Shown here piece by piece: positions 49,690 to 64,000 of a stretch of DNA of 64,000 nt. Positions within the stretch are counted from its first letter, which is position 1. Every line of letters starts with the position of its first letter. Source of the stretch: Escherichia coli (lineage in GTDB: Bacteria > Pseudomonadota > Gammaproteobacteria > Enterobacterales > Enterobacteriaceae). Under the pieces are notes generated by a model. It was given only the letters and a program-made list of their open reading frames with translations. It was not told the DNA's origin and searched no databases. Location: assembly GCF_024502345.1 (NCBI RefSeq), contig NZ_JALDNN010000001.1; one strand, given 5' to 3'. The translations under genes were made by a program, and so were the position numbers.

Positions 49690-50009
49690 ATAAATGGGTG
49701 GAACCTGTAAAGACTTCTACTCATTTATATTGTTTGTCGCCTCTGAAAACTCCTCCATTTTACCCATCCAGGGCTAATCATTAGCATTCTCTACAAATTC
49801 TGTGGCATTAATTTTTCGCTGGAGTGAAAATTATTGCGGTAAAGTTTGGTAGATTTTAGTTTGTATAGAGTTATTTTAAATATTTACCTTTTTAATCAAT
49901 GGATTAAGTGCTCTTTAACATAATGGATGTGTTGTTTGTGTGATACTATAAAGTTGGTAGATTGTGACTGGCTTAAAAAATCATTAATTAATAATAGGTT
50001 ATGTTTAGA
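49690..50009 (+). promoter_or_regulatory. AT-rich CRISPR leader
   Basis: AT-rich non-coding stretch directly abutting the first repeat, on the side opposite the degenerate terminal repeat. Confidence 0.6.
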
Positions 50010-50832
50010 GTGTTCCCCGCGCCAGCGGGGATAAACCGCGCGATTTGTTAGCGCCCGTTGCGCCTGGTGGGTGTTCCCCGCGCCAGCGGGGATAAACCGC
50101 GCGAGTTCGTGCGCATGGGGCGCATTTTTGGCGTGTTCCCCGCGCCAGCGGGGATAAACCGCGGCGTTCATGCCCTCCAGCACTGTTACGCGGGTGTTCC
50201 CCGCGCCAGCGGGGATAAACCGTAGTCAAGCGGTAATTCATCGCCTGCAGATCCGAGTTCCCCGCGCCAGCGGGGATAAACCGGCTAATTTACGTAATTT
50301 ACGTGCTATTGCACTGAGTTCCCCGCGCCAGCGGGGATAAACCGTGGGTCATGCCGGTGATCGCCTGCCCGTCGTGGAGTTCCCCGCGCCAGCGGGGATA
50401 AACCATCACCACCGCTTGTCATAAAATTAGCGTCATAGAGTTCCCCGCGCCAGCGGGGATAAACCGGGGAGTGGCACTTCTGGGGTAGCGGCGGCCCTGA
50501 GTTCCCCGCGCCAGCGGGGATAAACCGTCAACGCGCTCAGACGTTGCGTGAGTGAACCAGAGTTCCCCGCGCCAGCGGGGATAAACCGAAATATCCAGGG
50601 CTGGGCTGGAGGCAGACGGCGAGTTCCCCGCGCCAGCGGGGATAAACCGGCGTTGATGTTCTTGCGGGTGTTGCAAATATTGAGTTCCCCGCGCCAGCGG
50701 GGATAAACCGTTTCAGCAGTTCAGCGTAACACCGACGGTCACGAGTTCCCCGCGCCAGCGGGGATAAACCGCCCGGAATGCATTCTGAAGGTTTGCTGTA
50801 TATGAGTTCCCCGCGCCAGCGGGGATAAACCA
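50010..50832 (+). CRISPR. Type I-E CRISPR array: 14 repeats of 29 bp, 13 spacers (32-33 bp)
   Basis: Repeat GAGTTCCCCGCGCCAGCGGGGATAAACCG at strict 61-62 bp periodicity from 50010 to 50804; the first 3 repeats carry a GTG variant, and repeats 7 and 14 end in A. Confidence 0.97.
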
Positions 50833-51286
50833 CCATATAACCCGTTATCTCTTTCTCAAGTTTTTATATTAGCAGTACTTGTAATAAGCAACATATCCAC
50901 GTAACACCTCATGTTCAAAATAGTTCTCCATGCCAGAGAGGTTCACAATTATCGATACAAAAAATTAAATTTAATCAAAGTGTTATTTGTATGACTCTTA
51001 AATCGTTAAGAAATTTTAATCTATTATTTTTTTAATATTGAATTAATGCCTGTTAATTTTTTCTTTAGAATAACAGTATATTTTTTAAGCTTGTTATTCA
51101 TTGGTTAAGTAATAAATCTGGAAGTTTGTCTTTGTTTTGAGGCTAATGAGTGGTTTTACATAACCGCCTCTATACGCTGTTGATGAATAGTTCTTATGAA
51201 TAAAGATATCCAGTTCATACTTTAAGTGAAAATTGATAAAGTGCGATTCGTATTGTCTTTAATTCTAAAGACATCGAGTGTAGTTA

Positions 51287-51425
51287 ATATTCCTTGTAAA
51301 AACAGGGATAAACCGAACTAGTTAAAGTTTTTATTATGTTCCCTGCATCAGCGGGGATAAACCGGACTTGTTATCATTTTTTAAGTTGTCGAACTTATGT
51401 TCCCCGCGTCAGCGGGGATAACCAT
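51287..51425 (+). CRISPR. Degenerate CRISPR remnant (about 3 diverged repeats)
   Basis: ATGTTCCCTGCATCAGCGGGGATAAACCG and ATGTTCCCCGCGTCAGCGGGGATAACCAT separated by a 32-bp spacer, preceded by a partial ...CAGGGATAAACCG copy. Confidence 0.75.
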
Positions 51426-51437
51426 TTAGGTATGTTC

Positions 51438-51463
51438 AGGCCGGGCAGTTTTCCGCCCGGCCT
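51438..51463. terminator. GC-rich hairpin downstream of ygcE (no clear T-run)
   Basis: 9-bp stem aggccgggc/gcccggcct with an 8-nt loop. Confidence 0.4.
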
Positions 51464-51470
51464 ACCTCAT

Positions 51471-52949
51471 TCACGCATTCGACCAGCTCTGGATCGAATC
51501 CACATTCCCCAATTCCCCATGCATCACTTCATACGATTTTTTCAGGATCACATCAGTATGTTTGGTTAGGTCTTTGAAAATGCCTTTATTCATCGCGTCG
51601 TAGCGTTTGGCATTGCTCTCAATCGGTATAAAGATATCTTTCACGCGAACCATCTTATCAACAGCCGTTGCGTAATCCGGGTATAGCCCCAGACCTACCG
51701 CTGTATTAATCGCTGCTCCCAGACTTGCACAACCGTTAATGGCGTTACGGCGTGCCGGAAGGTTGAACACGTCGGCAAAAATTTGCATAAACAGATCGCT
51801 GTTCGAACCGCCGCCAGTAATGATCACATGCTTCGCAAAGTGATTCATTTCATTACACATATTGTCGTAATTGTTCTTCAGCGTTAGCGCCACGCTTTCC
51901 AATATCGAACGATATATCCATGCGTAATCCATGCTGGAATCAAAGCCGATCATAATCCCGCGTTTGTACGGTTCCCACGGATTGGTCAGCCAGTCCAGCA
52001 CCGTCATCAGCCCATTACAGCCAGGTGGCACACTAGAGGCTTTCTTGTTGAGTAAATCTTCCGGTGAAAGATCCTGCGCCCTGGCATCCTGAATTAACGA
52101 CTCGCCTAACATGTCACGCAGCCAGCTCACCGTCCACATACCTTTGCGAATACCGTAACCTTCATACAGCAATGTTTGCGGAATAGAAGACATAATCGGC
52201 CAGTACGCCACCGGATCTTTCGGCAGTGCTTTGCCGTTCATCATCAATGCGATGTAAGTGCCAAGAGAAATTACCGCAGTTTCATCATCCAGTAATCCGG
52301 CCCCCAGAGCTTCTACCGGTTTATCACTGGTGGTACAAACAACCGGCAGTCCTGCCGGGAAATGTGTCGCCAGTGCGGCTTGTGGTGTGATATGTCCGAG
52401 GACGGTGCCAGGCATTTGCACATCAAACAGCATATGACGGGGGATATTAAACTTATCCATTACCGCAGCATCTTCGCTCCATGCCCAGCTCTTATAATCC
52501 ACCGGCCACTGACCAAAATAGTTGGCGATATTGTCTTTAAACTCGCCGGTTAAGCGATGCGTCAGATAACCCGAAAAAGAGGTGACATACGCCACGTCAG
52601 GATTCGTATGTTCGTAAGGGCGTGTAACGCGTGCATCCTGCCAGCTAATCAACGGCGCAGCTGGCGTGCCGTCGGCTTTCAATAACGCACGGCAGCAACG
52701 GATGGAGCCCAGGCCGATGCCAACAATATCTTCTTTATTCCCGGCAAACTGGCTCATCAAATCGTGACCTGCAAAACATAATGATGCCCATAAATCGTCG
52801 TCAGGATGTTCTGCAGTATCGGCATAAGGCGTGTGCATCGGCTGTAATAAGCCTTTACCTTCGCAAACCACATTACCTTCCAGATCGTACATCACCACTT
52901 TTGTGCTCTGACTTCCGCCATCAATCCCTATGATGTATTTTTTCGACAT
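51471..52949 (-). CDS. ygcE: FGGY-family carbohydrate kinase YgcE (492 aa)
   Basis: 492-aa ORF MSKKYIIGIDGGSQSTKVVMYD... with actin-like ATPase motifs. Confidence 0.85.
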   Translation of the reverse strand: MSKKYIIGIDGGSQSTKVVMYDLEGNVVCEGKGLLQPMHTPYADTAEHPDDDLWASLCFAGHDLMSQFAGNKEDIVGIGLGSIRCCRALLKADGTPAAPLISWQDARVTRPYEHTNPDVAYVTSFSGYLTHRLTGEFKDNIANYFGQWPVDYKSWAWSEDAAVMDKFNIPRHMLFDVQMPGTVLGHITPQAALATHFPAGLPVVCTTSDKPVEALGAGLLDDETAVISLGTYIALMMNGKALPKDPVAYWPIMSSIPQTLLYEGYGIRKGMWTVSWLRDMLGESLIQDARAQDLSPEDLLNKKASSVPPGCNGLMTVLDWLTNPWEPYKRGIMIGFDSSMDYAWIYRSILESVALTLKNNYDNMCNEMNHFAKHVIITGGGSNSDLFMQIFADVFNLPARRNAINGCASLGAAINTAVGLGLYPDYATAVDKMVRVKDIFIPIESNAKRYDAMNKGIFKDLTKHTDVILKKSYEVMHGELGNVDSIQSWSNA

Positions 52950-52975
52950 GATTTTTCTCCTGTAATTTTCCTGGC

Positions 52976-54253
52976 TTACTTGCTGCTAGCCATTGCGGGG
53001 GCGCTATCAGCAGTACGAATTTTTTGGAACAGCAAAAAGGTAAAGACAATCACCATGGCAAGCGCCGCCATTCCCATCAGCCACATATTGCGGTAGGCTT
53101 CTGCTGCGGGCAGGGTGTCTTGCCAGTGGCCGATAATCGGGTAAACGAAGACATCCGGCAGGAATCCAATCACCGAACAAATACCTACCGTGGTGCCCAT
53201 AATGTAAGACGGTGTTCTCGCTTCGCCAGGGCAGGCCCAGTACAGCCCGCGTGAGGCGTAACAGGTGAATCCCAGCAGTAAAATCAGGCCAATCCCCATC
53301 GCGACCGATTGCGGGTTAGAGTTCGTGACGAGCAGGGCAGTTAACGCCAGCAGGTCGAGTACGGAAAGGATTTGGATCACGCGGGTAGGGGATTTCACTT
53401 TACTGTAGGTGGTGATAATGCCGCCAAGTGGGCCGCACAGCGCGCGGAAGATTTTGTTGATCACAATCCCCATGTAGCTCGCTGCCACCAGCGACATGCC
53501 GTACATTTCGGTCAGATAGTTGGTGGAGTAACTCAGAATGGCGTAGATTGTGAAGACACCAAAAATCACCATGCTGCAATACCAGGTGGTGCTGATACGC
53601 AAAACGGCAAGGATGTCGCTAAGCTGGAATGACTGTTTTTCTTCGTTATTGGCACTGCGCAGGTTGTTGTTATCGCTAACAAAAAACCAGCACAGAATCC
53701 CCAACAAGATGTAAACCACACTGTAGATGATAATGACTGTTTTCAGGCTGGCGCTGTCATCCGGTGCAAAGCGAGAAAAGACCCACATGGTAAACACCGC
53801 CAGCGACATTACACCGACGCCGCGCAGCCCTTCCATCCAGCCCATAATTTTCCCTTGCTCACTATGATCGCCCAGCAACGAGGCGGCTTTAATCGACACC
53901 GACCACAGCATTAAAATCGTCGTTATCGCAAAGGCGACCTGAATACAGAGCATTACCCACAGCGGTGGATACGTTGCCATTAACAGACCCAGTAATCCGG
54001 TAATGATCATCGCGGAAGTAATCATTTTGCGGTGTGAAAATTTATCGGCAATAACGCCGCTGGGGGCATAAAGAATAATAGCCGCAATACCAAAGGTACT
54101 CATTATTAAACCTATCTCGGTATTGCTGAATCCCATAAATTTCGCCATGGGAATTTGATAAATATAACGTAAATAAGCCAGGTCAAAACTAACGCCGCCG
54201 CTAAAACTAATTATCGCGAGGGTTATCCAACGGCGATATGAGTTGTGTTGCAT
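52976..54253 (-). CDS. yqcE: MFS transporter YqcE (425 aa)
   Basis: 425-aa 12-TM-like ORF directly upstream of ygcE on the same strand. Confidence 0.8.
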   Translation of the reverse strand: MQHNSYRRWITLAIISFSGGVSFDLAYLRYIYQIPMAKFMGFSNTEIGLIMSTFGIAAIILYAPSGVIADKFSHRKMITSAMIITGLLGLLMATYPPLWVMLCIQVAFAITTILMLWSVSIKAASLLGDHSEQGKIMGWMEGLRGVGVMSLAVFTMWVFSRFAPDDSASLKTVIIIYSVVYILLGILCWFFVSDNNNLRSANNEEKQSFQLSDILAVLRISTTWYCSMVIFGVFTIYAILSYSTNYLTEMYGMSLVAASYMGIVINKIFRALCGPLGGIITTYSKVKSPTRVIQILSVLDLLALTALLVTNSNPQSVAMGIGLILLLGFTCYASRGLYWACPGEARTPSYIMGTTVGICSVIGFLPDVFVYPIIGHWQDTLPAAEAYRNMWLMGMAALAMVIVFTFLLFQKIRTADSAPAMASSK

Positions 54254-54431
54254 ATCGTATTCCCATTTGTAATAGAAAAAAAAAAGAGAAAAGTAAGCCG
54301 CCCTTTCAGGTGGATTACTTTTCTCAGGTCTCTAGTAATTGCAATAAGAAATAACATGGAAAGCAGAGGTGTTGTGTGAGAGTAATCACGCTTCTGCTTT
54401 TTAAAACTATTTGACAATACGAATATCACAC

Positions 54432-54447
54432 TGTGATTACGATCACA
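54432..54447. promoter_or_regulatory. Consensus CRP site in the yqcE / ygcW divergent intergenic region
   Basis: TGTGA-ttacga-TCACA, perfect match to both half-sites. Confidence 0.6.
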
Positions 54448-54498
54448 TTAGCAGTTATGCCGTTATGCTAAAAATTATCTCCAGTTACCAGAGATAAT

Positions 54499-54547
54499 GA
54501 GAAAGGTAACTTCCCTCTCGCGGGGGAAGTTACCTTTCTTTTTTTTT
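54499..54547 (+). terminator. Strong intrinsic-terminator-like hairpin in the ygcW leader (candidate attenuator)
   Basis: Perfect 16-bp stem agaaaggtaacttccc/gggaagttacctttct, loop tctcgcg, then a T9 run; ends 25 bp before the ygcW ATG. Confidence 0.7.
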
Positions 54548-54571
54548 GCCTTACGGAAATTGGAGCTAACT

Positions 54572-55357
54572 ATGTCAATCGAATCTCTCAATGCGTTCTC
54601 AATGGATTTTTTCTCACTGAAAGGTAAAACCGCAATTGTTACCGGTGGGAATAGCGGTTTAGGCCAGGCATTTGCCATGGCGTTGGCCAAAGCTGGCGCA
54701 AATATCTTTATTCCTAGTTTCGTCAAAGATAACGGCGAAACAAAGGAAATGATTGAAAAACAGGGTGTTGAGGTGGACTTCATGCAGGTGGATATCACCG
54801 CAGAAGGCGCGCCGCAGAAGATTATCGCTGCTTGCTGTGAGCGTTTCGGTACAGTTGATATTCTGGTAAACAATGCCGGTATTTGTAAGCTGAATAAGGT
54901 GCTGGACTTCGGTCGTGCCGACTGGGATCCGATGATTGATGTGAACCTGACCGCCGCATTCGAGTTAAGCTATGAAGCGGCAAAAATTATGATCCCGCAG
55001 AAAAGCGGCAAAATTATTAATATCTGTTCATTGTTCTCTTACTTAGGTGGACAATGGTCACCTGCATATTCTGCCACTAAACATGCTCTTGCCGGATTCA
55101 CCAAAGCTTATTGTGATGAACTAGGTCAATATAATATTCAGGTAAATGGTATTGCCCCTGGCTATTATGCAACAGATATTACGCTGGCGACACGCAGTAA
55201 TCCAGAAACCAATCAGCGCGTTCTTGATCATATTCCGGCAAACCGTTGGGGCGATACTCAGGATTTAATGGGCGCAGCTGTATTCCTCGCAAGTCCGGCT
55301 TCAAATTATGTCAATGGGCATTTATTAGTGGTCGATGGTGGTTATTTAGTGCGCTAA
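54572..55357 (+). CDS. ygcW: Short-chain dehydrogenase/reductase YgcW (261 aa)
   Basis: ORF 54497..55357; start set at MSIESLNAF after a GGAG RBS; SDR motif TGGNSGLG. Confidence 0.85.
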   Translation: MSIESLNAFSMDFFSLKGKTAIVTGGNSGLGQAFAMALAKAGANIFIPSFVKDNGETKEMIEKQGVEVDFMQVDITAEGAPQKIIAACCERFGTVDILVNNAGICKLNKVLDFGRADWDPMIDVNLTAAFELSYEAAKIMIPQKSGKIINICSLFSYLGGQWSPAYSATKHALAGFTKAYCDELGQYNIQVNGIAPGYYATDITLATRSNPETNQRVLDHIPANRWGDTQDLMGAAVFLASPASNYVNGHLLVVDGGYLVR

Positions 55358-55426
55358 TCCATAACGGTGGTTTCTGTTTTCTCTTATTAATGATTATTCC
55401 ATTTTTATTATCAGGAAGGAATTACT

Positions 55427-56881
55427 ATGTCTTTATCTCGCGCAGCGATTGTCGACCAACTAAAGGAAATTGTTGGTGCAGATCGCGTAATTACCGATGA
55501 AACAGTATTAAAGAAGAACAGTATTGACCGTTTTCGTAAATTTCCGGATATTCATGGCATTTATACTTTGCCGATTCCGGCAGCGGTCGTAAAACTCGGT
55601 TCCACAGAGCAAGTATCCCGTGTGCTGAATTTTATGAATGCGCACAAAATTAACGGTGTGCCGCGTACCGGTGCTTCCGCCACCGAAGGTGGGCTGGAAA
55701 CTGTTGTAGAAAACTCGGTGGTGCTCGACGGTTCCGCCATGAATCAAATCATTAATATTGATATTGAGAATATGCAGGCGACGGCGCAATGTGGCGTTCC
55801 CCTGGAAGTGCTGGAAAATGCGTTGCGTGAAAAAGGTTACACCACGGGGCATTCTCCGCAGTCAAAGCCGCTGGCGCAGATGGGCGGCCTGGTAGCAACC
55901 CGCAGTATCGGGCAGTTCTCCACACTCTACGGCGCAATCGAAGATATGGTCGTTGGTCTGGAGGCAGTGTTGGCAGATGGCACCGTCACACGCATTAAAA
56001 ACGTGCCACGCCGCGCGGCTGGCCCGGACATTCGTCACATCATCATCGGCAACGAAGGTGCATTGTGCTATATCACTGAAGTAACAGTGAAAATCTTTAA
56101 ATTCACCCCGGAAAACAACCTCTTCTACGGCTATATCCTGGAAGACATGAAAACCGGCTTCAACATCCTGCGTGAAATCATGGTGGAAGGGTATCGTCCG
56201 TCGATCGCTCGTTTGTATGACGCTGAAGATGGCACCCAACACTTCACCCATTTTGCCGACGGTAAATGTGTGCTGATCTTTATGGCTGAAGGCAATCCTC
56301 GCATTGCGAAGGCGACGGGCGAAGGGATTGCGGAAATCGTTGCCCGCTACCCGCAGTGCCAGCGCGTGGACAGCAAACTGATCGAAACCTGGTTTAACAA
56401 CCTGAACTGGGGACCGGATAAAGTGGCTGCCGAACGTGTGCAGATCCTCAAAACCGGCAACATGGGCTTTACCACTGAAGTGTCCGGCTGCTGGAGCTGC
56501 ATCCACGAAATCTACGAAAGCGTTATTAACCGTATTCGTACTGAGTTCCCGCACGCCGACGACATCACCATGCTGGGCGGTCACTCCTCTCATAGCTATC
56601 ATAACGGCACCAACATGTACTTCGTCTACGATTACAACGTCGTTGACTGTAAGCCGGAAGAGGAAATCGACAAGTACCACAATCCGCTCAACAAGATCAT
56701 CTGTGAAGAAACCATTCGCCTCGGCGGTTCGATGGTGCACCACCACGGTATCGGTAAACATCGCGTTCACTGGAGCAAACTGGAACACGGCAGCGCGTGG
56801 GCGTTGCTGGAAGGGCTGAAAAAGCAGTTCGATCCTAATGGCATTATGAATACGGGTACTATCTATCCGATTGAAAAATAA
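55427..56881 (+). CDS. ygcU: FAD-linked oxidoreductase YgcU (GlcD/vanillyl-alcohol-oxidase superfamily, 484 aa)
   Basis: 484-aa ORF with FAD-binding PCMH-type domain features. Confidence 0.8.
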   Translation: MSLSRAAIVDQLKEIVGADRVITDETVLKKNSIDRFRKFPDIHGIYTLPIPAAVVKLGSTEQVSRVLNFMNAHKINGVPRTGASATEGGLETVVENSVVLDGSAMNQIINIDIENMQATAQCGVPLEVLENALREKGYTTGHSPQSKPLAQMGGLVATRSIGQFSTLYGAIEDMVVGLEAVLADGTVTRIKNVPRRAAGPDIRHIIIGNEGALCYITEVTVKIFKFTPENNLFYGYILEDMKTGFNILREIMVEGYRPSIARLYDAEDGTQHFTHFADGKCVLIFMAEGNPRIAKATGEGIAEIVARYPQCQRVDSKLIETWFNNLNWGPDKVAAERVQILKTGNMGFTTEVSGCWSCIHEIYESVINRIRTEFPHADDITMLGGHSSHSYHNGTNMYFVYDYNVVDCKPEEEIDKYHNPLNKIICEETIRLGGSMVHHHGIGKHRVHWSKLEHGSAWALLEGLKKQFDPNGIMNTGTIYPIEK

Positions 56882-56974
56882 TGTGTCAGGCAGCGTTCCG
56901 CGATGACGGGGCGTTGCCTTTTCGGCTTCTCAGGCGAGAAGCCGTTCTTATTACCGGACAATGAAGGGGTAAAG

Positions 56975-58312
56975 ATGAACACTTCACCGGTGCGAATGGA
57001 TGATTTACCGCTTAACCGTTTTCACTGCCGCATTGCTGCGCTCACTTTCGGCGCACACCTGACCGACGGTTATGTTCTCGGCGTCATTGGTTACGCCATT
57101 ATTCAGCTTACGCCCGCCATGCAACTGACGCCGTTTATGGCGGGAATGATCGGCGGCTCGGCGCTCCTTGGTTTGTTTCTTGGCAGCCTGGTTCTTGGGT
57201 GGATCTCCGACCATATTGGTCGGCAAAAAATCTTCACCTTCAGCTTTTTGCTGATTACGCTCGCTTCGTTCTTGCAATTTTTTGCCACCACGCCAGAGCA
57301 TCTTATTGGGCTGCGCATTTTGATCGGCATTGGGCTGGGAGGCGATTACTCAGTTGGTCACACCTTGCTGGCTGAATTTTCCCCGCGCCGCCATCGCGGT
57401 ATTTTGCTGGGCGCATTCAGCGTGGTGTGGACCGTAGGTTATGTGCTGGCAAGTATTGCCGGACATCACTTTATTTCCGAAAACCCGGAGGCCTGGCGCT
57501 GGCTGCTGGCATCGGCAGCTCTGCCCGCATTGTTGATTACGTTATTACGCTGGGGAACGCCAGAATCGCCACGCTGGCTACTGCGCCAGGGGCGTTTTGC
57601 AGAAGCTCACGCTATCGTGCATCGCTATTTTGGTCCCCATGTTTTACTGGGCGATGAAGTGGCAACGGCGACCCATAAACACATCAAAACCTTGTTCTCT
57701 TCGCGCTACTGGCGGCGTACGGCGTTTAACAGCGTCTTCTTTGTCTGCCTCGTAATTCCATGGTTTGTGATTTATACCTGGCTGCCAACTATCGCCCAGA
57801 CTATTGGACTGGAAGATGCGCTGACTGCCAGCCTGATGCTTAATGCGTTGTTAATTGTGGGCGCGCTGCTGGGATTAGTTCTGACGCACCTGCTGGCACA
57901 TCGCAAGTTTTTGCTGGGAAGTTTTTTGCTGCTGGCGGCAACGCTGGTAGTGATGGCCTGTTTGCCTTCCGGCAGTTCATTAACGCTACTGCTTTTTGTT
58001 CTCTTCAGCACCACCATTTCGGCAGTCAGTAATCTGGTGGGCATTTTGCCTGCGGAAAGTTTTCCTACTGACATTCGCTCGCTGGGCGTCGGTTTTGCCA
58101 CCGCCATGAGTCGGTTGGGGGCGGCGGTAAGTACTGGCCTGCTGCCGTGGGTGCTGGCGCAGTGGGGAATGCAAGTTACCTTATTGATCCTGGCGGCAGT
58201 GTTGTTAGTTGGTTTTGTCGTGACCTGGCTATGGGCACCAGAAACCAAAGCACTCCCGCTGGTGGCGGCGGGAAATGTAGGAGGTGCGAATGAACATTCT
58301 GTTAGCGTTTAA
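56975..58312 (+). CDS. ygcS: MFS sugar-porter-like transporter YgcS (445 aa)
   Basis: ORF 56903..58312; start set at MNTSPVRMDDLPLNRF; sugar-porter-like motifs. Confidence 0.8.
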   Translation: MNTSPVRMDDLPLNRFHCRIAALTFGAHLTDGYVLGVIGYAIIQLTPAMQLTPFMAGMIGGSALLGLFLGSLVLGWISDHIGRQKIFTFSFLLITLASFLQFFATTPEHLIGLRILIGIGLGGDYSVGHTLLAEFSPRRHRGILLGAFSVVWTVGYVLASIAGHHFISENPEAWRWLLASAALPALLITLLRWGTPESPRWLLRQGRFAEAHAIVHRYFGPHVLLGDEVATATHKHIKTLFSSRYWRRTAFNSVFFVCLVIPWFVIYTWLPTIAQTIGLEDALTASLMLNALLIVGALLGLVLTHLLAHRKFLLGSFLLLAATLVVMACLPSGSSLTLLLFVLFSTTISAVSNLVGILPAESFPTDIRSLGVGFATAMSRLGAAVSTGLLPWVLAQWGMQVTLLILAAVLLVGFVVTWLWAPETKALPLVAAGNVGGANEHSVSV

Positions 58313-59069
58313 AGCCGAACCGGATGCCGGAATGCTGGCGGAAAAAGAGTGGCAGGCGGCGGCTCAGGGTAATAGCGGACCGGATGTTTCGCTACTGCGA
58401 AGTTTACTCGGTGCTGATGAACAGGCTGCCGCCGCGCTGCTGTTGGCGCAGATAAAAAACGGTACGCCGATGTCTTTAACCGCGTTGAGCATGGGGGATG
58501 AACGGGCGTTACACTGGCTGCGCTATCTCATGGCTCTTGGGTTTGAGGAAGCTGTATTGCTGGAGACGGCGGCAGATCTGCGCTTTGCACCGGAATTTGT
58601 CGCTCGCCATATTGCCGAATGGCAGCGTCAGAATCCGCTGGATCTGATAATTACCGGCTGCCAAAGCAGCGAAGGGCAGAATTGGCAAACGCCATTTTTG
58701 CTGGCGGAAATGCTGGGCTGGCCCTGCTTCACCCAGGTGGAGCGTTTCACTCTCGACGCGCCGTTTATCACCCTCGAACAGCGTACTGAACATGGGTTGC
58801 GTTGTTGCCGGGTTCGCTTGCCTGCGGTGATTGCCGTGCGCCAGTGTGGTGAAGTGGCCTTGCCAGTACCGGGAATGCGCCAGCGAATGGCTGCGGGGAA
58901 AGCGGAAATTATCCGTAAAACTGTTGCTGCCGAATTGCCAGCGATGCAGTGTCTGCAACTGGCAAGAGCAGAGCAACGACGCGGAGCGACGCTGATTGAT
59001 GGGAAAACGGTAGCAGAAAAAGCGCAAAAGCTATGGCAGGACTATTTACGCCAAAGGATGCAGCCATGA
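58290..59069 (+). CDS. ygcR: Electron transfer flavoprotein beta-subunit-like protein YgcR (FixA-like)
   Basis: 259-aa ORF overlapping the ygcS 3' end; ETF-beta-like. Confidence 0.75.
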   Translation: MNILLAFKAEPDAGMLAEKEWQAAAQGNSGPDVSLLRSLLGADEQAAAALLLAQIKNGTPMSLTALSMGDERALHWLRYLMALGFEEAVLLETAADLRFAPEFVARHIAEWQRQNPLDLIITGCQSSEGQNWQTPFLLAEMLGWPCFTQVERFTLDAPFITLEQRTEHGLRCCRVRLPAVIAVRQCGEVALPVPGMRQRMAAGKAEIIRKTVAAELPAMQCLQLARAEQRRGATLIDGKTVAEKAQKLWQDYLRQRMQP

Positions 59070-59926
59070 ATATCGCAATTGTGACAATAAATCAGGAGAA
59101 TGCCGCATTAGCGGGCTGGCTGGCGGCGCAGGATTTCAGCGGTTGTACCCTGGCGCACTGGCAAATAGAACCACAGCCCGTAGTGGTGGAACAGGTGCTG
59201 GATGCGCTGGTGGAACAGTGGAAGCGAACGCCTACGGACGTTGTTCTCTTTCCGCAGGGAACGTTTGGCGATGAACTGTCGACCCGGCTGGCCTGGCGTT
59301 TACATGGTGCAAGCATCTGCCAGGTGACTTCGTTAGATATTCCAACCGTAAGCGTGCGCAAATCCCACTGGGGAAATGCGCTAACGGCGACGCTGCAAAC
59401 AGAAAAACGCCCGCTATGCCTTTCCCTGGCGCGTCAGGCGGGAGCAGAGAAAAACGCCACGTTGCCCTCTGGTATGCAGCAACTGAACATTGTCCCAGGT
59501 GCGCTTCCCGACTGGCTGGTTAGCATAGAGAATCTGAAAAATGTTAGCCGCGACCCATTAGCTGAAGCCAGACGGGTGCTGGTGGTGGGGCAGGGCGGAG
59601 AGGCAGATAACCAGGAAATCGCTATGCTGGCAGAAAAGCTGGGAGCCGAAGTGGGCTACAGTCGGGCGCGAGTGATGAACGGTGGCGTTGATGCTGAAAA
59701 AGTGATTGGTATTTCCGGACATCTGCTGGCACCTGAGGTGTGTATTGTTGTTGGCGCTTCTGGCGCAGCAGCGTTAATGGCGGGCGTACGCAATAGCAAG
59801 TTTGTGGTGGCGATTAATCATGACGCCAGCGCAGCGGTATTTTCACAGGCAGATGTTGGCGTGGTTGATGACTGGAAAGTGGTGCTGGAGGCACTGGTGA
59901 CAAACATTGACGCAGAATGCCAATAA
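59066..59926 (+). CDS. ygcQ: Electron transfer flavoprotein alpha-subunit-like protein YgcQ (FixB-like, 286 aa)
   Basis: ORF 59033..59926; start set at MNIAIVTINQ, overlapping the ygcR stop (ATGA). Confidence 0.75.
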   Translation: MNIAIVTINQENAALAGWLAAQDFSGCTLAHWQIEPQPVVVEQVLDALVEQWKRTPTDVVLFPQGTFGDELSTRLAWRLHGASICQVTSLDIPTVSVRKSHWGNALTATLQTEKRPLCLSLARQAGAEKNATLPSGMQQLNIVPGALPDWLVSIENLKNVSRDPLAEARRVLVVGQGGEADNQEIAMLAEKLGAEVGYSRARVMNGGVDAEKVIGISGHLLAPEVCIVVGASGAAALMAGVRNSKFVVAINHDASAAVFSQADVGVVDDWKVVLEALVTNIDAECQ

Positions 59927-59970
59927 CGTGCTGCCGGATGATCCTGCCTACGGTTCTGGACTGGGGACCT

Positions 59971-60007
59971 GTAGGCCTGATAAGACGCGTTAAGCGTCGC
60001 ATCAGGC
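59971..60007. repeat. REP element between convergent ygcQ and ygcP
   Basis: gtaggcctgataagacgcgttaagcgtcgcatcaggc. Confidence 0.75.
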
Positions 60008-60072
60008 GCTGAAGGTCGGATGTGGCATGCAGCCTACAAATCACACAAATTCAATTCGTTACGATTATCCCG

Positions 60073-60648
60073 TCAAAGCAATTTTTTAGCTAACGTCCAG
60101 ACTCCGGTATTCGTGGTGGAAAGCGCCACGACACCCGCGTTAATCGCATTACGCGCATTTTCTTCATCGCATACCAGCCCGCCAGCAATCAGCGGTTGAC
60201 GGATTTTCTCCGTCACCCAGCCCAGCACTTTGGGCATACAGCCAGGCAGGATCTCAATACAATCCGGATTCGATTGCGCAACTTGCTTATCAATGTTGTG
60301 AAACGAAATTGAATCAACAATAAACAGGCGATGAATACAGAAAAAACCTTCCGCTCTTGCCGCTTTCAGCATTGAGGCTTTGGTACTGATAATTCCGTCC
60401 GCCTCGGTCACCAGTTTCAAAAACTGAATCACGACTTCTTTATTTGACGCGCCTTCCAGCAAATCAACATGAATAAAAGCATATTTCCCGGCGTTCTTAA
60501 TCTTTTTAACGATATTACTGATGGTGCAGATATTGCCGTACAACACGGAAATAAACTGGCATTCAGAGTCGATTGCCAGTTGCAGGCTGGCATTATCTTT
60601 AACGGCAGCAATCACCGGATTCTGGCGGAGCAGGTGTAAGAGGGGCAT
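60073..60648 (-). CDS. ygcP: GlpP-family putative RNA-binding antiterminator YgcP (191 aa)
   Basis: 191-aa ORF recognised as belonging to the glycerol-3-phosphate responsive antiterminator (GlpP) family. Confidence 0.75.
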   Translation of the reverse strand: MPLLHLLRQNPVIAAVKDNASLQLAIDSECQFISVLYGNICTISNIVKKIKNAGKYAFIHVDLLEGASNKEVVIQFLKLVTEADGIISTKASMLKAARAEGFFCIHRLFIVDSISFHNIDKQVAQSNPDCIEILPGCMPKVLGWVTEKIRQPLIAGGLVCDEENARNAINAGVVALSTTNTGVWTLAKKLL

Positions 60649-60664
60649 AAATTATCCTTTTTAC

Positions 60665-60925
60665 TTATCCAAAGCGGTAGGTGATGCCGAATCCGGAAGG
60701 CGGATAGCGCCACTGTTGTAGTGTTTTTTCGTCGCACAGCAAACGGCAGGTGCCACACTCCAGGCAGCCGTGATAATCAACGCGTAAGTCACCTTCCGGT
60801 GTGAGCGAAAAAAGACCAGCCGGACAAGCGTTAATCAACCGTTGTACCGTCTGGCGCTCAACGGAGTCAGCCGGAACAATGTGCGGCGCATCGGCAACGC
60901 GCCAGAGATTACGGGCTACAGACAT
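60665..60925 (-). CDS. ygcO: Ferredoxin-like protein YgcO (FixX-like, 86 aa)
   Basis: Cys-rich short ORF (CPAGLF...CLECGTC); overlaps the ygcN 3' end. Confidence 0.75.
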   Translation of the reverse strand: MSVARNLWRVADAPHIVPADSVERQTVQRLINACPAGLFSLTPEGDLRVDYHGCLECGTCRLLCDEKTLQQWRYPPSGFGITYRFG

Positions 60926-62187
60926 CGAACACTCCTGATAACATCGCCCGCCAGATGCCACAGGCCATGACGACGTAAATGACGCCAGAGTAACTGGCGC
61001 AGCGGTGGAACAGGTTTATCACCCTGATCCCATAAATCGCGGGAAATATCCTGCATTAACGCAGGCCACGTACGGTACCATCCCGGGCGTTGCAAAAGCG
61101 CCGGAACATGCTGATAACGCTGTAGAACATCCCACAGCAGGCTGCGCTCGACGTTGTGATGATAAAGCGGAAACAGATTTTGCGGCTCGCGGTGCTGGCA
61201 GGCGCTTATCAGTGTTTGTGCCGCCGCCTGCGCGCCAGTTAGCGCCGTATCCATGCCGCGCACGGAAATTCCGGTATTGACGCAACTGCGCAACGCATCG
61301 CCTACCAGCAGCCAGCCGTTACCGGCGTATTGCACTGGCATACTGTGCAAGCCACCTTCTGGCACCAGATGCGCACCATACTCCAGTGATTCCGTGTTTT
61401 TGATAAGCGGGCGCACTGCCGGATGCGTTTTAAAGCGAGCCAGCAGCTCGCTTGCCGGAACACGACTTTGCGTAAGGGAAGAGAGCGGGCAAACAATCCC
61501 TAACGAGAGCGTTTGTTGATTAGTATAAAGAAATGCGCCGCCGGGAAAGTCATCACAGATTCCGCCGCTGAACAGCAACGCTGCGCCTTCGTTATTCTCC
61601 AGATGAAAACGTTCTTCAATAGCGGATGTTTCCAGCGACAGCACTTCTTTGATCCCCAACGCCATCGCTTCGCCAGCAGGACGAGTCACTAATCCGTGAC
61701 GTTCAGCCAGGACGCTGTTGGCACCTTCTGCCAGCACCACATAACGGGCGCGGAGAATATCGTCACCACAAATGACACCACACACCCTGCCGTTTTCTTC
61801 ATACAGTGCATTCACCGTCGCTCCGGGGATGCATTCGACACCTTCTTTTTCGGCTTCGGCAACCAGCCACGGATCGAACCGTGCACGTAATACACTCCAG
61901 GATTCACCGCCGGGCTGTAAGCTGGAAAATGTCGTTACGCCATCGGGCGTTAACAGGGAAAGGCTTTCGTGAGTGATGCGTCGTTCAAGAGGCGCGGTCA
62001 GATGAAATTGCGGGAGGAGTTCCGCGAGTGCATGGGTATATAACCGCCCGCCGGAAAGATTTTTGCTGCCGGGGATTTCAGCGCGTTCCAGTAACAAAAC
62101 GGATAAACCCGCTCGCGCGCAGCGTAACGCGCAAGCGGTGCCTGCAATACCGGCACCAATAATAATAATGTCGCAGTCGTCTTCCAT
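60916..62187 (-). CDS. ygcN: FAD-dependent oxidoreductase YgcN (FixC/ETF-QO-like, 423 aa)
   Basis: ORF 60916..62217; start set at MEDDCDIIIIGAGIAG (Rossmann FAD motif). Confidence 0.8.
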   Translation of the reverse strand: MEDDCDIIIIGAGIAGTACALRCARAGLSVLLLERAEIPGSKNLSGGRLYTHALAELLPQFHLTAPLERRITHESLSLLTPDGVTTFSSLQPGGESWSVLRARFDPWLVAEAEKEGVECIPGATVNALYEENGRVCGVICGDDILRARYVVLAEGANSVLAERHGLVTRPAGEAMALGIKEVLSLETSAIEERFHLENNEGAALLFSGGICDDFPGGAFLYTNQQTLSLGIVCPLSSLTQSRVPASELLARFKTHPAVRPLIKNTESLEYGAHLVPEGGLHSMPVQYAGNGWLLVGDALRSCVNTGISVRGMDTALTGAQAAAQTLISACQHREPQNLFPLYHHNVERSLLWDVLQRYQHVPALLQRPGWYRTWPALMQDISRDLWDQGDKPVPPLRQLLWRHLRRHGLWHLAGDVIRSVRCL

Positions 62188-62264
62188 GTCATGCCCCAGA
62201 TATCCAGAACACAACACCCTAACATAGCGTTACTTAAGGGAAATTGACCGCCGACACACTCTTA

Positions 62265-62630
62265 TCATTCGCCGCGATAGATACAACCAGCGGTGCAGGT
62301 TTCTTTTACCATCACCGCACTTAACAGCGGCACAACGGGTTTAACCTGATCCCAAATCCATTTTGCTAAAACTTCGCTGGTCGGGTTTTCCAGGCCTGGA
62401 ATATCATTGAGATAATGGTGATCGAGGCGCTCATAAGTTGGCTTAAACGCTGCTTTCAGTTCAGCGAAATCGATAACCCAGCCCGTATGCGGATCGACTT
62501 CCCCGGTAATTTCCAGTCGCACCATAAAGGAATGCCCGTGCAGGCGACCACATTTATGCCCTTCCGGGACGTGTGGTAAGCGGTGAGCGGCTTCGAAGGT
62601 GAAATCTTTAAATAACGTGGTGGACATCAT
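62265..62630 (-). CDS. queD: 6-carboxy-5,6,7,8-tetrahydropterin synthase QueD (YgcM, 121 aa)
   Basis: ORF 62265..62714; start set at [33 protein letters not shown] (zinc-binding CxxxHGH). Confidence 0.88.
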
Positions 62631-62945
62631 AATTTCTCTACAGGACGATAAAACCGCCGTAGAGTACCGGAAAGGCTGTTTTTTCGCATTATCTAAAACG
62701 ACTTTGTTGCGCAAAATCGCTGATTTATCTTAATGATTGGCTAAATTCATTTGTTTTTCATTAGGTTGGTTAATCTATTTTGTTGTTAAAGACTATTGCT
62801 AAAACAGGTTAGTCGATTTGGTTATTAGTTATCGCTATCCCGTCTTTAATCCACACCGTTCACCCCGTTAACCTTACCTTCTCTTCTGTTTTATGGGCGC
62901 TGACAGGGCGCAGAAACAGCTTTGCTTACTGGAACATAACGACGC

Positions 62946-64000
62946 ATGACGACACAGGTCCCACCTTCCGCGTTGCTTCCGTTGAACCCGGAGCAACTGG
63001 CACGCCTTCAGGCGGCCACGACCGATTTAACTCCCACCCAGCTTGCCTGGGTTTCTGGCTATTTCTGGGGCGTGCTCAATCAGCAGCCTGCTGCGCTTGC
63101 AGCAACGCCAGCGCCAGCCGCAGAAATGCCGGGTATAACTATTATCTCCGCCTCGCAAACCGGCAATGCGCGCCGGGTTGCTGAAGCATTACGTGATGAT
63201 TTATTAGCGGCAAAACTGAACGTTAAGCTGGTGAACGCGGGCGACTATAAATTCAAACAAATCGCCAGCGAAAAACTGCTTATCGTGGTGACGTCAACGC
63301 AAGGAGAAGGGGAACCGCCGGAAGAAGCCGTCGCGCTGCATAAGTTCCTGTTCTCCAAAAAAGCGCCGAAGCTGCAAAACACCGCATTTGCCGTGTTTAG
63401 CCTCGGCGATAGCTCTTATGAATTTTTCTGCCAGTCCGGGAAAGATTTTGACAGCAAGCTGGCGGAACTGGGCGGTGAACGCCTGCTCGACCGTGTCGAT
63501 GCCGACGTTGAATACCAGACCGCTGCCAGCGAGTGGCGCGCTCGCGTGGTTGATGCGCTTAAATCGCGTGCGCCTGTCGCGGCACCTTCGCAATCCGTCG
63601 CTACTGGCGCGGTAAATGAAATCCACACCAGCCCGTACAGCAAAGACTCGCCGCTGGTGGCGAGCCTCTCTGTTAACCAGAAAATTACCGGGCGTAACTC
63701 TGAAAAAGACGTTCGCCATATCGAAATTGACTTAGGTGACTCGGGCCTGCGTTACCAGCCGGGTGACGCGCTGGGCGTCTGGTATCAGAACGATCCGGCA
63801 CTGGTGAAAGAACTTGTCGAACTGCTGTGGCTGAAAGGCGATGAACCTGTCACCGTCGAGGGCAAAACGTTGCCTCTGAACGAAGCGCTACAGTGGCACT
63901 TCGAACTGACCGTCAACACCGCCAATATTGTTGAGAACTATGCCACGCTTACCCGCAGCGAAACGCTGTTGCCGCTGGTGGGCGATAAAGCGAAGTTACA
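62946..64000 (+). CDS. cysJ: Sulfite reductase [NADPH] flavoprotein alpha-component CysJ, N-terminal part (3' end outside the window)
   Basis: ATG at 62946; hand translation [42 protein letters not shown]... stays open to the window edge; absent from the ORF track only because it has no stop in the window. Confidence 0.9.

Follow-up and report, generated by a model that had tools for sequence, protein, structure and literature searches.

In Bacillus subtilis, GlpP together with glycerol-3-phosphate overrides a terminator in the 5' untranslated region (UTR) of glpD, glpFK and glpTQ (PMC9604022, PMC10573289), where promoter, GlpP site and terminator are laid out within the 5' UTR (PMC9604022). 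Here we describe a putative counterpart of this arrangement in Escherichia coli, in the ygc cluster, which is among the remaining blocks of E. coli K-12 genes without a function. The cluster lies at positions 51471–62187 of the stretch of DNA that we analysed (64 kb of contig NZ_JALDNN010000001.1, hereafter the window). An earlier reading of the sequence, referred to below as the original prediction, had described it as an uncharacterised route of uptake, phosphorylation and oxidation. On balance, we favour the view that it is a catabolite-controlled, substrate-inducible catabolic system, in which two structural operons are switched by protein-dependent antitermination and a glycerol-like substrate is processed by the kinase YgcE, the short-chain dehydrogenase/reductase (SDR) YgcW and the flavoenzyme YgcU. 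What is new here is the likeness of YgcU to alkylglycerone-phosphate synthase (AGPS), a pair of leader elements, antiterminator and terminator, tied to the GlpP-like protein YgcP, and a conserved unit of fewer than the ten genes of the E. coli cluster.

The region between the divergent genes ygcW and yqcE (318 bp, 54254–54571) contains two CRP sites and two paralogous leaders of ~65 nt. The ygcW leader RNA (54482–54550, plus strand), found by a terminator scan and folding, has a short helix, P1, with the 5' arm AGTTACC (54483–54489), the loop AGAGATAATGAGAAA and the 3' arm GGTAACT (54505–54511), and a G+C-rich terminator stem of 19 bp (54499–54540) with a U9 tract (54539–54547). The yqcE leader RNA (54276–54341, minus strand), found by reading the sequence, folding and a covariance model, has the same parts, namely P1 with the 5' arm ATTACT (54339–54334), the loop AGAGACCTGAGAAA and the 3' arm AGTAAT (54319–54314), a terminator stem (54325–54286) and a U10 tract (54285–54276). 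The ygcW leader folds at -35.2 kcal/mol (z = -6.7), with -6.7 kcal/mol for P1 alone in a shortened sequence, and the yqcE leader folds with z = -4.6. Ahead of each terminator lies a short segment that can pair with the distal part of the terminator's own 5' arm, and the loops of both leaders share the motif AGAG-N4-5-GAGAAA, which becomes AGAG-N3-5-GAGAAA(A/G) over the whole family. As there is no upstream gene whose transcription would run into either hairpin, we regard both as leader terminators and not as operon ends. The window thus offers YgcP two 5' UTRs with an intrinsic terminator and an overlapping upstream element, as predicted from the folds. Neither leader has a match at E ≤ 1 in Rfam 15 over positions 50000–63000, where the only match, elsewhere and weak, is related to repetitive extragenic palindromes (REP). 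The conserved start of ygcW, with a GGAG ribosome-binding site, is at 54572. Upstream of it, an in-frame ATG at 54497 lengthens the mechanical open reading frame (ORF) to 286 aa, and gene callers could mis-start there; we rejected it as the start, as it lies within the leader and is not conserved outside Enterobacteriaceae.

The leader is conserved in Proteobacteria, Firmicutes and Actinobacteria, and conserved sequence precedes the SDR gene in Enterobacterales, Photobacterium, Sporomusa, Geosporobacter, Dethiosulfatibacter, Halobacillus, Thalassobacillus, Virgibacillus, uncultured Bacillota and Saccharopolyspora. We aligned 45 distinct leader instances from three phyla (alignment A2), with P1 pairing in 95.9% of the cells. 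Compensatory change is seen in five of the seven P1 pairs, including G-C/A-U at 3-33 (33:11), U-A/C-G at 8-28 (37:4) and A-U/G-C at 6-30 (43:2). None of 500 shuffles matched the observed values, and a slid partner was paired in at most 59%. The terminator is paired in 86% of cells of the same alignment and is predicted independently by RNAalifold, where compensation is seen for 11 of 16 pairs. Within P1, two nucleotides of the 3' arm are paired in at least 44 of the 45 instances, while in the terminator register they are unpaired in 26 and 33 of the 45. Since these nucleotides are mostly unpaired in the terminator register, P1 itself is under selection; its pairing is maintained for its own sake, as an antiterminator helix needs. 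A mobile repeat of the REP type or a miniature inverted-repeat transposable element was considered as the source of the two copies and was ruled out by their compensatory differences, their fixed positions before specific genes and their conservation across phyla.

A covariance model built from this alignment (R1) had exactly two strong matches in the window, the ygcW leader (73 bits, E = 6e-15) and the yqcE leader (70.1 bits, E = 3e-14). Neither this search nor reading of the sequence revealed a third leader upstream of ygcN. Over ~1.58 Mb of loci, strong matches were found solely in front of cluster operons, the target genes encoding the SDR, the AGPS-like enzyme, transporters of the major facilitator superfamily (MFS), BCCT and OpuA types and, in addition, an operon with an MttB-like gene. 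Enterobacterial loci that span the divergent region have two copies of the motif each, one per divergent operon, and in other phyla one to three copies precede genes for the SDR, the AGPS-like enzyme, BCCT or MFS transporters or an OpuA-type ABC transporter. The motif is present in all 58 loci that encode a GlpP-like protein, and 18 loci that have the enzymes and lack a GlpP-like gene also lack the motif; these are mostly from Desulfobacterales and have LysR or sigma-54 regulators. In the few loci with the motif and without the gene, a contig or locus end is close by or the gene is on a separate contig (S. microhaemolytica). A metagenome scan anchored on the motif alone returned five contigs, all with ygc-type genes.

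The E. coli member of this protein family is YgcP (191 aa, 60073–60648, minus strand), a putative RNA-binding antiterminator that matches Pfam G3P_antiterm (PF04309) over residues 12–184 (E = 4.3e-62) and Listeria GlpP (PDB 3kts, E = 1.2e-27) and is 31% identical to Priestia GlpP. The original prediction had listed a GlpP-like gene, and this family assignment holds, although its likely targets, the two leaders of the divergent region, had been overlooked.

For comparison, we used canonical glpP-glpF-glpK-glpD loci from Priestia, Lysinibacillus, Paenibacillus, Lentibacillus and a Bacillus species, and read by eye eight canonical glp leaders from these five Bacilli genomes (four before glpD, three before glpF and one upstream of glpP; L085 8580–8740 and 11140–11296, L087 6130–6288 and 8565–8723, L093 6800–7003 and 9130–9395, L094 11080–11285, L095 7556–7805). 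They contain the box AAGTTAATA, followed by a helix of 3–4 bp that encloses a tandem GGAGA-N3-GGAGA and covaries within this small sample of eight leaders (GGT/ACC, GTGG/CCAC, GTGA/TCAC, TGGT/ACCA). The 5' arm of the terminator is made up of the second GGAGA repeat together with the 3' arm of this helix. Both systems have a PF04309 regulator and, in the 5' UTRs of operons for catabolism and transport, an intrinsic terminator near the promoter and a short covarying helix that encloses purine-rich GAGA-type tandem repeats overlapping the terminator 5' arm. Both also have an FGGY kinase able to make a phosphorylated inducer, and superimposed catabolite control. They differ in sequence, with a GUUAC P1 and AGAG/GAGAAAAG in ygc as opposed to AAGUUAAUA and GGAGA-N3-GGAGA in glp, in regulon, which in ygc comprises the SDR, the AGPS-like enzyme and an electron-transfer flavoprotein (ETF) and not GlpF, GlpK and GlpD, and in setting, as the ygc host is Gram-negative and uses CRP and not CcpA. 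With filters off, R1 scored at most 17 bits on three canonical loci, with no match inside a glp leader. At the level of sequence this rules out the ygc leader as an ordinary member of the canonical class, with which it has only the architecture in common. The ygc leaders are a distinct class in sequence, and most likely work in the manner of GlpP targets. The canonical glp leaders themselves have no Rfam family and look like an uncurated RNA class of their own.

The divergent region also contains the sole perfect CRP consensus in the window (expected 0.05), TGTGATTACGATCACA at 54432–54447, centred 44.5 nt upstream of P1 of the ygcW leader. A putative second, CRP-like site that matches at nine of ten positions, TGTGAGAGTAATCACG at 54375–54390, was found by reading the sequence and is centred 43.5 nt upstream of P1 of the yqcE leader. 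From this spacing we infer class II promoters that would start a few nucleotides before each leader. The first site was bound in vitro with a Kd of 1.7 nM in Footprint-seq (PMC12871828), and it is among the top 20 CRP predictions of PhyloScan and second in two of six ranked lists (PMC1794230). CRP activation of yqcE-ygcE was inferred from transcriptomics (PMC8085971). Other Enterobacterales have CRP-like sites at the same position, and both sites are conserved. The CRP site that the original prediction had placed in the divergent promoter is thus confirmed by its perfect consensus and its affinity in vitro.

We propose that cAMP-CRP binds at the two sites, each centred about 42–44 nt upstream of the leader start, and that each would activate one promoter. 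Each transcript would begin with the ~65-nt leader, which is predicted to fold into the intrinsic terminator, so that the default state is off. Effector-loaded YgcP, made from the separate ygcNOP unit, would bind the loop AGAG-N3-5-GAGAAA(A/G) presented by P1, and the stabilised P1 would sequester the 5' arm of the terminator and allow read-through into yqcE-ygcE and ygcWUSRQ. It is the covariation, the co-occurrence of motif and gene, and the same architecture in canonical GlpP leaders that lead us to this read-through step. By analogy with GlpP, whose effector is glycerol-3-phosphate, YgcP probably responds to the phosphorylated product of YgcE. Comparative evidence gives good support to this regulatory half of the proposal, with its predicted CRP activation, default termination and read-through that depends on YgcP.

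The chemical half starts from YgcU (484 aa, 55427–56881, plus strand), a FAD enzyme with PF01565 and PF02913. Its top solved relatives are mammalian and Dictyostelium AGPS (PDB 4bby and 2uuu; E = 4e-40 with the single sequence, and E = 3.6e-56 for 4bby with a family profile), ahead of glycolate oxidase, LctD and the D-lactate dehydrogenases. The score against the glcD model TIGR00387 was 143.8 bits, short of its cut-off of 567.9. In the profile alignment, YgcU R262 corresponds to AGPS Arg419, Y398 to Tyr578 and H438–H440 to His615–617, and these residues are invariant in 12 aligned family members from Enterobacterales, SAR324, Desulfobacterota, Negativicutes, Bacilli and Vibrionaceae. According to their titles, PDB 4bc7 and 4bca are the Arg419His and Tyr578Phe mutants of AGPS, and we take these two residues and the HHH motif to be catalytic. 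YgcU is 65–76% identical across phyla. The alignment begins at AGPS residue 179, and the first ~180 of the 658 residues of AGPS, its N-terminal region, have no counterpart in YgcU. An AlphaFold model of YgcU built from a shallow alignment was poor (pLDDT 66); its top 29 Foldseek matches in the PDB were all AGPS, which we count as weak support. In sequence, YgcU is AGPS-like rather than GlcD-like, and the label GlcD-like in the original prediction has to be withdrawn.

The kinase YgcE (492 aa, 51471–52949, minus strand, an intact ORF) was compared with the characterised FGGY kinases XylB, LsrK, GlpK, AraB, FucK, RhaB and GntK. Its NCBIfam scores are 142 bits for XylB (cut-off 380), 138 for LsrK (528) and 98 for GlpK (590), none of which reaches the cut-off, and its top PDB match is LsrK (E = 7e-29). 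It retains the equivalents of GlpK Arg83, Trp103 and Asp245 and lacks those of Glu84, the Tyr135 segment and Phe270, which suggests a pocket in which the Arg, the Trp and the catalytic Asp of GlpK are kept but which has been opened. YgcW (261 aa, 54572–55357, plus strand) narrowly misses the KduD model NF005390 (350.6 bits, cut-off 369), scores 276 bits against TIGR01832 (cut-off 339) and is 63–82% identical to its relatives in other phyla. The two MFS permeases are YqcE (425 aa, 52976–54253, minus strand), encoded by the first gene of the yqcE-ygcE operon, and YgcS (469 aa, 56903–58312, plus strand).

Which of these genes belong together was assessed in 80 loci with YgcU relatives (65–100% identity, one genome per species), onto each of which the cluster proteins were mapped. 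The SDR (63–97% identical to YgcW), the AGPS-like enzyme and the FGGY kinase form a cross-phylum core that occurs together in nearly all of the 80 loci, and a GlpP-like gene joins it in most lineages. ETF beta and alpha are frequent, and are missing from clusters of Halobacillus type (P / leader / W-K-U-BCCT), of Alkalihalobacillus and of Erwinia/Pantoea type. In the Halobacillus locus L066 the operon has four genes, for the BCCT transporter, the SDR, the kinase and the AGPS-like enzyme. The FixC/FixX-like pair is confined to Enterobacterales, as is ygcS. In anaerobes, a further FAD_binding_4 enzyme (F2), whose top solved relative is LctD, occurs in the order ETFb-ETFa-F2. Enterobacterales use the MFS transporters YqcE and YgcS, and Firmicutes, SAR324, Desulfobacterota and Photobacterium have transporters of BCCT or OpuA/ProW type, often with homologues of MttB-family methyltransferases. 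The conserved unit is therefore smaller than ten genes and consists of the SDR, the AGPS-like enzyme, the kinase, the GlpP-like regulator and a transporter. The genome-neighbourhood comparison that the original prediction had proposed shows the joint occurrence of SDR, AGPS-like enzyme and kinase, but not of ETF and FixCX, which are often absent.

The ETF/FixCX genes are also the least conserved. YgcR (259 aa, 58290–59069, plus strand), a divergent ETF beta subunit, has a weak ETF-beta match (40 bits, cut-off 350), and the divergent ETF alpha subunit YgcQ (286 aa, 59066–59926, plus strand) has ETF-alpha matches of 64–76 bits (cut-off 240). YgcN (423 aa, 60916–62187, minus strand), a FixC-like ETF-quinone oxidoreductase encoded by the first gene of ygcNOP, scores 375 bits against NF007450 and 359 bits against the FixC model (cut-off 610), both below cut-off, and the FixX-like ferredoxin YgcO (86 aa, 60665–60925, minus strand) scores 82.7 bits against the FixX model NF011993 (cut-off 166). 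All four components of a FixABCX-type set thus give family-level matches, every one of them under its curated cut-off. Within Enterobacterales (loci L008–L049 and L081), median identity is 46% for YgcR and 44% for YgcQ, and 44–60% for ETF and FixCX overall, as against 88–92% for YgcW, YgcU and YgcP. This module appears to be either under relaxed constraint or repeatedly replaced. The set resembles the carnitine-linked FixABCX and the YdiQRST of E. coli in having ETF beta and alpha, a FixC-like flavoprotein and a FixX-like ferredoxin; it differs in its scores below the cut-offs, in the split of its genes over two converging units, in its poor conservation in Enterobacterales and in its absence from many ygc-type clusters. 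To call the cluster a complete route wired to a dedicated electron-transfer chain, as the original prediction did, is an overstatement, as ETF and FixCX are missing from many otherwise identical clusters.

The core can be compared with several known pathways. In eukaryotes, alkylglycerol kinase, the SDR alkyl-dihydroxyacetone phosphate reductase and AGPS, which is peroxisomal, interconvert alkylglycerol, alkyl-glycerol-3-phosphate and alkyl-dihydroxyacetone phosphate, and AGPS acts on C1 of an ester of dihydroxyacetone phosphate (DHAP). The kinase, SDR and AGPS-like enzyme of ygc mirror these three activities, and YgcU has the FAD_binding_4/FAD-oxidase_C fold, the residues mutated in 4bc7 and 4bca and the HHH loop. 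Unlike AGPS, it lacks the ~180 N-terminal residues, is encoded in a CRP-controlled catabolic operon with solute transporters and is followed by ETF genes. In GlpK/GlpD and in Brucella EryA/EryB, an FGGY kinase phosphorylates a polyol and a flavoenzyme oxidises the phosphate ester into the quinone pool; the kinase-then-flavoenzyme logic is the same in ygc, but the ygc flavoenzyme belongs to the VAO/AGPS family and not to the DAO/GlpD family, and an additional SDR step is always there. As in LctBCD/GlcD, a FAD_binding_4 enzyme adjoins ETF beta/alpha, and in anaerobic relatives the LctD-like F2 follows ETF, which is also the order of lctBCD in Acetobacterium woodii. YgcU itself is farther from LctD and GlcD than from AGPS, and F2 is missing from E. 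coli.

A regulator family that senses glycerol-3-phosphate, GlpK-like kinase residues, an SDR and an AGPS-type set in the flavoenzyme together suggest a substrate with a glycerol end. We infer the following steps from homology and analogy. The permeases YqcE and YgcS would take up a glycerol-like compound that bears a substituent at one end, YgcE would phosphorylate its free primary hydroxyl, and YgcW with NAD(P)+ would oxidise the neighbouring secondary hydroxyl to give a 1-substituted dihydroxyacetone phosphate. YgcU, with the AGPS catalytic set, would act at C1 of this ketone phosphate, and the substituent would be either released, leaving DHAP, or oxidised, with electrons passing via YgcR/Q and YgcN/O to quinone. 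Either YgcU carries out a net oxidation, or the ETF is dispensable and works with other partners. For marine and halophilic relatives, a substituent with a quaternary ammonium group is most likely; it is the quaternary-amine transporters and MttB-like genes of these organisms that suggest a trimethylammonium substituent. In an uncultured Bacillota (L074, 6997–14029, minus strand), a second copy of the leader precedes an operon that encodes an MttB-family homologue (402 bits), a PanB-like protein, an OpuA-type betaine/choline ABC transporter and a proline-racemase-like protein, which ties the regulon to quaternary-amine metabolism. For relatives with quaternary-amine transporters, deacylated betaine-lipid head groups are one candidate substrate, a possibility on which we found no paper in the searchable literature.

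Accessory genes vary among the clusters. Recurrent neighbours encode an SSADH-like aldehyde dehydrogenase, a Zn-dependent alcohol dehydrogenase, a Lyase_1-family protein and a YghZ-like aldo-keto reductase, and Erwinia-type clusters have a Fae-like protein in addition. Clusters of Erwinia/Pantoea/Serratia type (L034, L035, L039, L045, L048 and L049) lack ETF and FixCX; that of Erwinia typographi (L034, 1–5402) encodes an SSADH-like aldehyde dehydrogenase, a YghZ-like aldo-keto reductase, a GcvA-like LysR regulator and a formaldehyde-activating-enzyme-like protein (135 bits, above the cut-off of 118). As a source for the identity of the substrate, the accessory genes (for the two dehydrogenases, the Lyase_1-family protein, the aldo-keto reductase and the Fae-like, MttB-like and proline-racemase-like proteins) gave suggestive patterns only and no answer. 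In the same survey, a ygcU gene 100% identical to that of E. coli occurs in a metagenome-assembled genome of Planctomycetota (L005, 2–1450), and the whole locus of a Chryseobacterium sp. (L028) is a cluster of Enterobacteriaceae type (88% identity); in both cases the probable reason is contamination or mis-binning of the public assembly.

A number of observations weigh against an antitermination-controlled glycerol-like pathway as drawn here. The ygcW terminator is a perfect 19-bp helix of -35 kcal/mol, compared with -6.7 kcal/mol for P1. The covariance model is blind to canonical GlpP leaders and YgcP is just 31% identical to GlpP, so that the analogy with GlpP is one of architecture and not of sequence. 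The structure model of YgcU is poor, and AGPS chemistry is redox-neutral, which leaves the adjacent ETF/FixCX genes unexplained; these genes may instead mark YgcU as an ordinary ETF-linked dehydrogenase. Furthermore, E. coli has MFS and not quaternary-amine transporters, and its substrate may therefore differ from that of the marine clusters.

A rival explanation, in line with the original prediction, leaves the regulation unchanged and reads the cluster as a route for a sugar, polyol or sugar acid. YgcU would then be a dehydrogenase of GlcD/LctD type, acting on a 2-hydroxy acid or a polyol phosphate and feeding YgcR/Q and YgcN/O, much as in the kinase and FAD-dehydrogenase pairs GlpK/GlpD and Brucella EryA/EryB. 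ETF beta/alpha directly follow ygcU or ygcS in E. coli and most anaerobes, FAD_binding_4 enzymes such as LctD work with ETF (PDB 7qh2 match), the E. coli cluster has no other flavoenzyme to feed ETF, and YgcW resembles KduD and gluconate 5-dehydrogenase. We nevertheless consider this rather unlikely, as YgcU scores only 144 bits against a glcD cut-off of 568, retains the Arg, Tyr and HHH specific to AGPS, to which it is nearer than to any 2-hydroxy-acid dehydrogenase, and as it is F2, placed after ETFb-ETFa, that is the LctD-like protein of the anaerobes. Moreover, the clusters of Halobacillus type, Alkalihalobacillus and Erwinia/Pantoea type keep the SDR, the AGPS-like enzyme and the kinase at 65–85% identity while lacking ETF, and the ETF/FixCX proteins evolve much faster than the core. 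The rapid drift of this module, with low identities even among close relatives, could also mean that the E. coli cluster as a whole is a cryptic or decaying remnant, silenced by two strong terminators and with no usable substrate in its niche. The unusually strong ygcW terminator, the lack of a reported phenotype or inducer in the searchable literature and the annotation of yqcE as a pseudogene in at least one other strain fit such a remnant. It is made quite improbable by the intactness of all ten ORFs, by the presence of the cluster, mostly at full length, in 5421 of 5426 genomes, by the 88–92% identity of YgcW, YgcU and YgcP across Enterobacterales and by the conservation of both leaders and both CRP sites.

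It is also conceivable that the leaders act without YgcP, as metabolite-binding riboswitches or simple constitutive attenuators, and that YgcP has another role, for example as an enzyme-like TIM barrel. Although the leader sequence is highly conserved, as in aptamers, and ygcP does not adjoin the leaders in E. coli, a loop of ~30 nt with a helix of 5–7 bp is small for an aptamer, the design recurs in canonical GlpP leaders, and the motif is present with a PF04309 gene in 58 of 58 loci and absent from the 18 loci with the same enzymes and no such gene. We regard this explanation as very improbable. A bolder form of the antitermination-controlled glycerol-like pathway, which we put forward only tentatively and consider unlikely as it stands, is that the ygc core is a widespread, so far undescribed pathway that runs the chemistry of eukaryotic ether-lipid synthesis catabolically, from 1-substituted glycerol-3-phosphate via 1-substituted DHAP to DHAP, and thereby cleaves soluble glyceryl ethers or other 1-substituted glycerols such as the deacylated betaine-lipid head groups of marine bacteria. 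In all three phyla it would be controlled by antiterminator RNAs of a new, GlpP-dependent class, which would sense the phosphorylated intermediate.

The core enzymes are 65–80% identical between E. coli and Firmicutes or Actinobacteria, which points to a defined and widespread reaction. If our proposal is correct, GlpP-type antitermination operates in a Gram-negative bacterium, outside glycerol metabolism and through an RNA element missing from Rfam, and the use of AGPS chemistry in catabolism would be a new role for that flavoenzyme family. Likewise, the quaternary-amine transporters and MttB-like methyltransferases of marine and gut anaerobes would link the pathway to trimethylamine-related metabolism. 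The recognised leaders also give an experimental handle, as a reporter with and without ygcP could reveal the inducer and hence the substrate.

The ygc cluster is real and intact, and within the limits of the searchable literature its substrate and function remain to be assigned. Its ten ORFs all start with ATG, contain no internal stops and match the gene content and coordinates given in the original prediction, and the region is up to 98.5% identical to the annotated E. coli ygc cluster. The ygc stretch was found in 5421 of 5426 complete E. coli genomes, with at least 80% covered in one piece in 5060, which speaks against the pseudogenisation that the original prediction had named as a possible refutation. 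All ten proteins stay below the curated cut-offs of all characterised NCBIfam families, and in the searchable literature the gene names surface in promoter and CRP surveys and one over-expression screen, with no function assigned; a Citrobacter paper on quaternary amines, considered as a source on ygc, deals with cai/fix and not with ygc. The description of the cluster as uncharacterised, with an unknown substrate, therefore stands, and no already characterised pathway emerged from the NCBIfam equivalogs or the literature. Equally sound were the division into three strand-wise units (yqcE-ygcE, ygcWUSRQ and ygcNOP) and the family labels FGGY, MFS (twice), SDR, ETF beta/alpha, FixC-like, FixX-like and PF04309. 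Translational coupling, which had been claimed from overlapping starts and stops, fits three junctions with overlapping ORFs (ygcS/ygcR, 23 nt; ygcR/ygcQ, 4 nt; ygcN/ygcO, 10 nt) but not ygcW-ygcU and ygcU-ygcS, which are separated by 69 and 21 nt; the junctions without overlap are gaps of 16–69 nt.

Three further observations concern the borders of these units. Only 78 bp (62188–62265), without a leader motif or clear promoter, separate ygcN from the upstream gene queD on the same strand, and ygcNOP, including the regulator gene, may be transcribed by read-through from queD. Between the convergent genes ygcQ and ygcP, at ~59960–60010, lie palindromes (gcctgataagacgcg...cgcatcaggc) like those of REP or bacterial interspersed mosaic elements, with a weak, sub-threshold naRNA4 match at 59975–60007. 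Just downstream of ygcE, a CRISPR array (50196–50404) comprises 3.4 units with a period of 61 and the type I-E repeat GTTCCCCGCGCCAGCGGGGATAAACCG, and a CRISPR array is also annotated at the matching place in the E. coli reference match.

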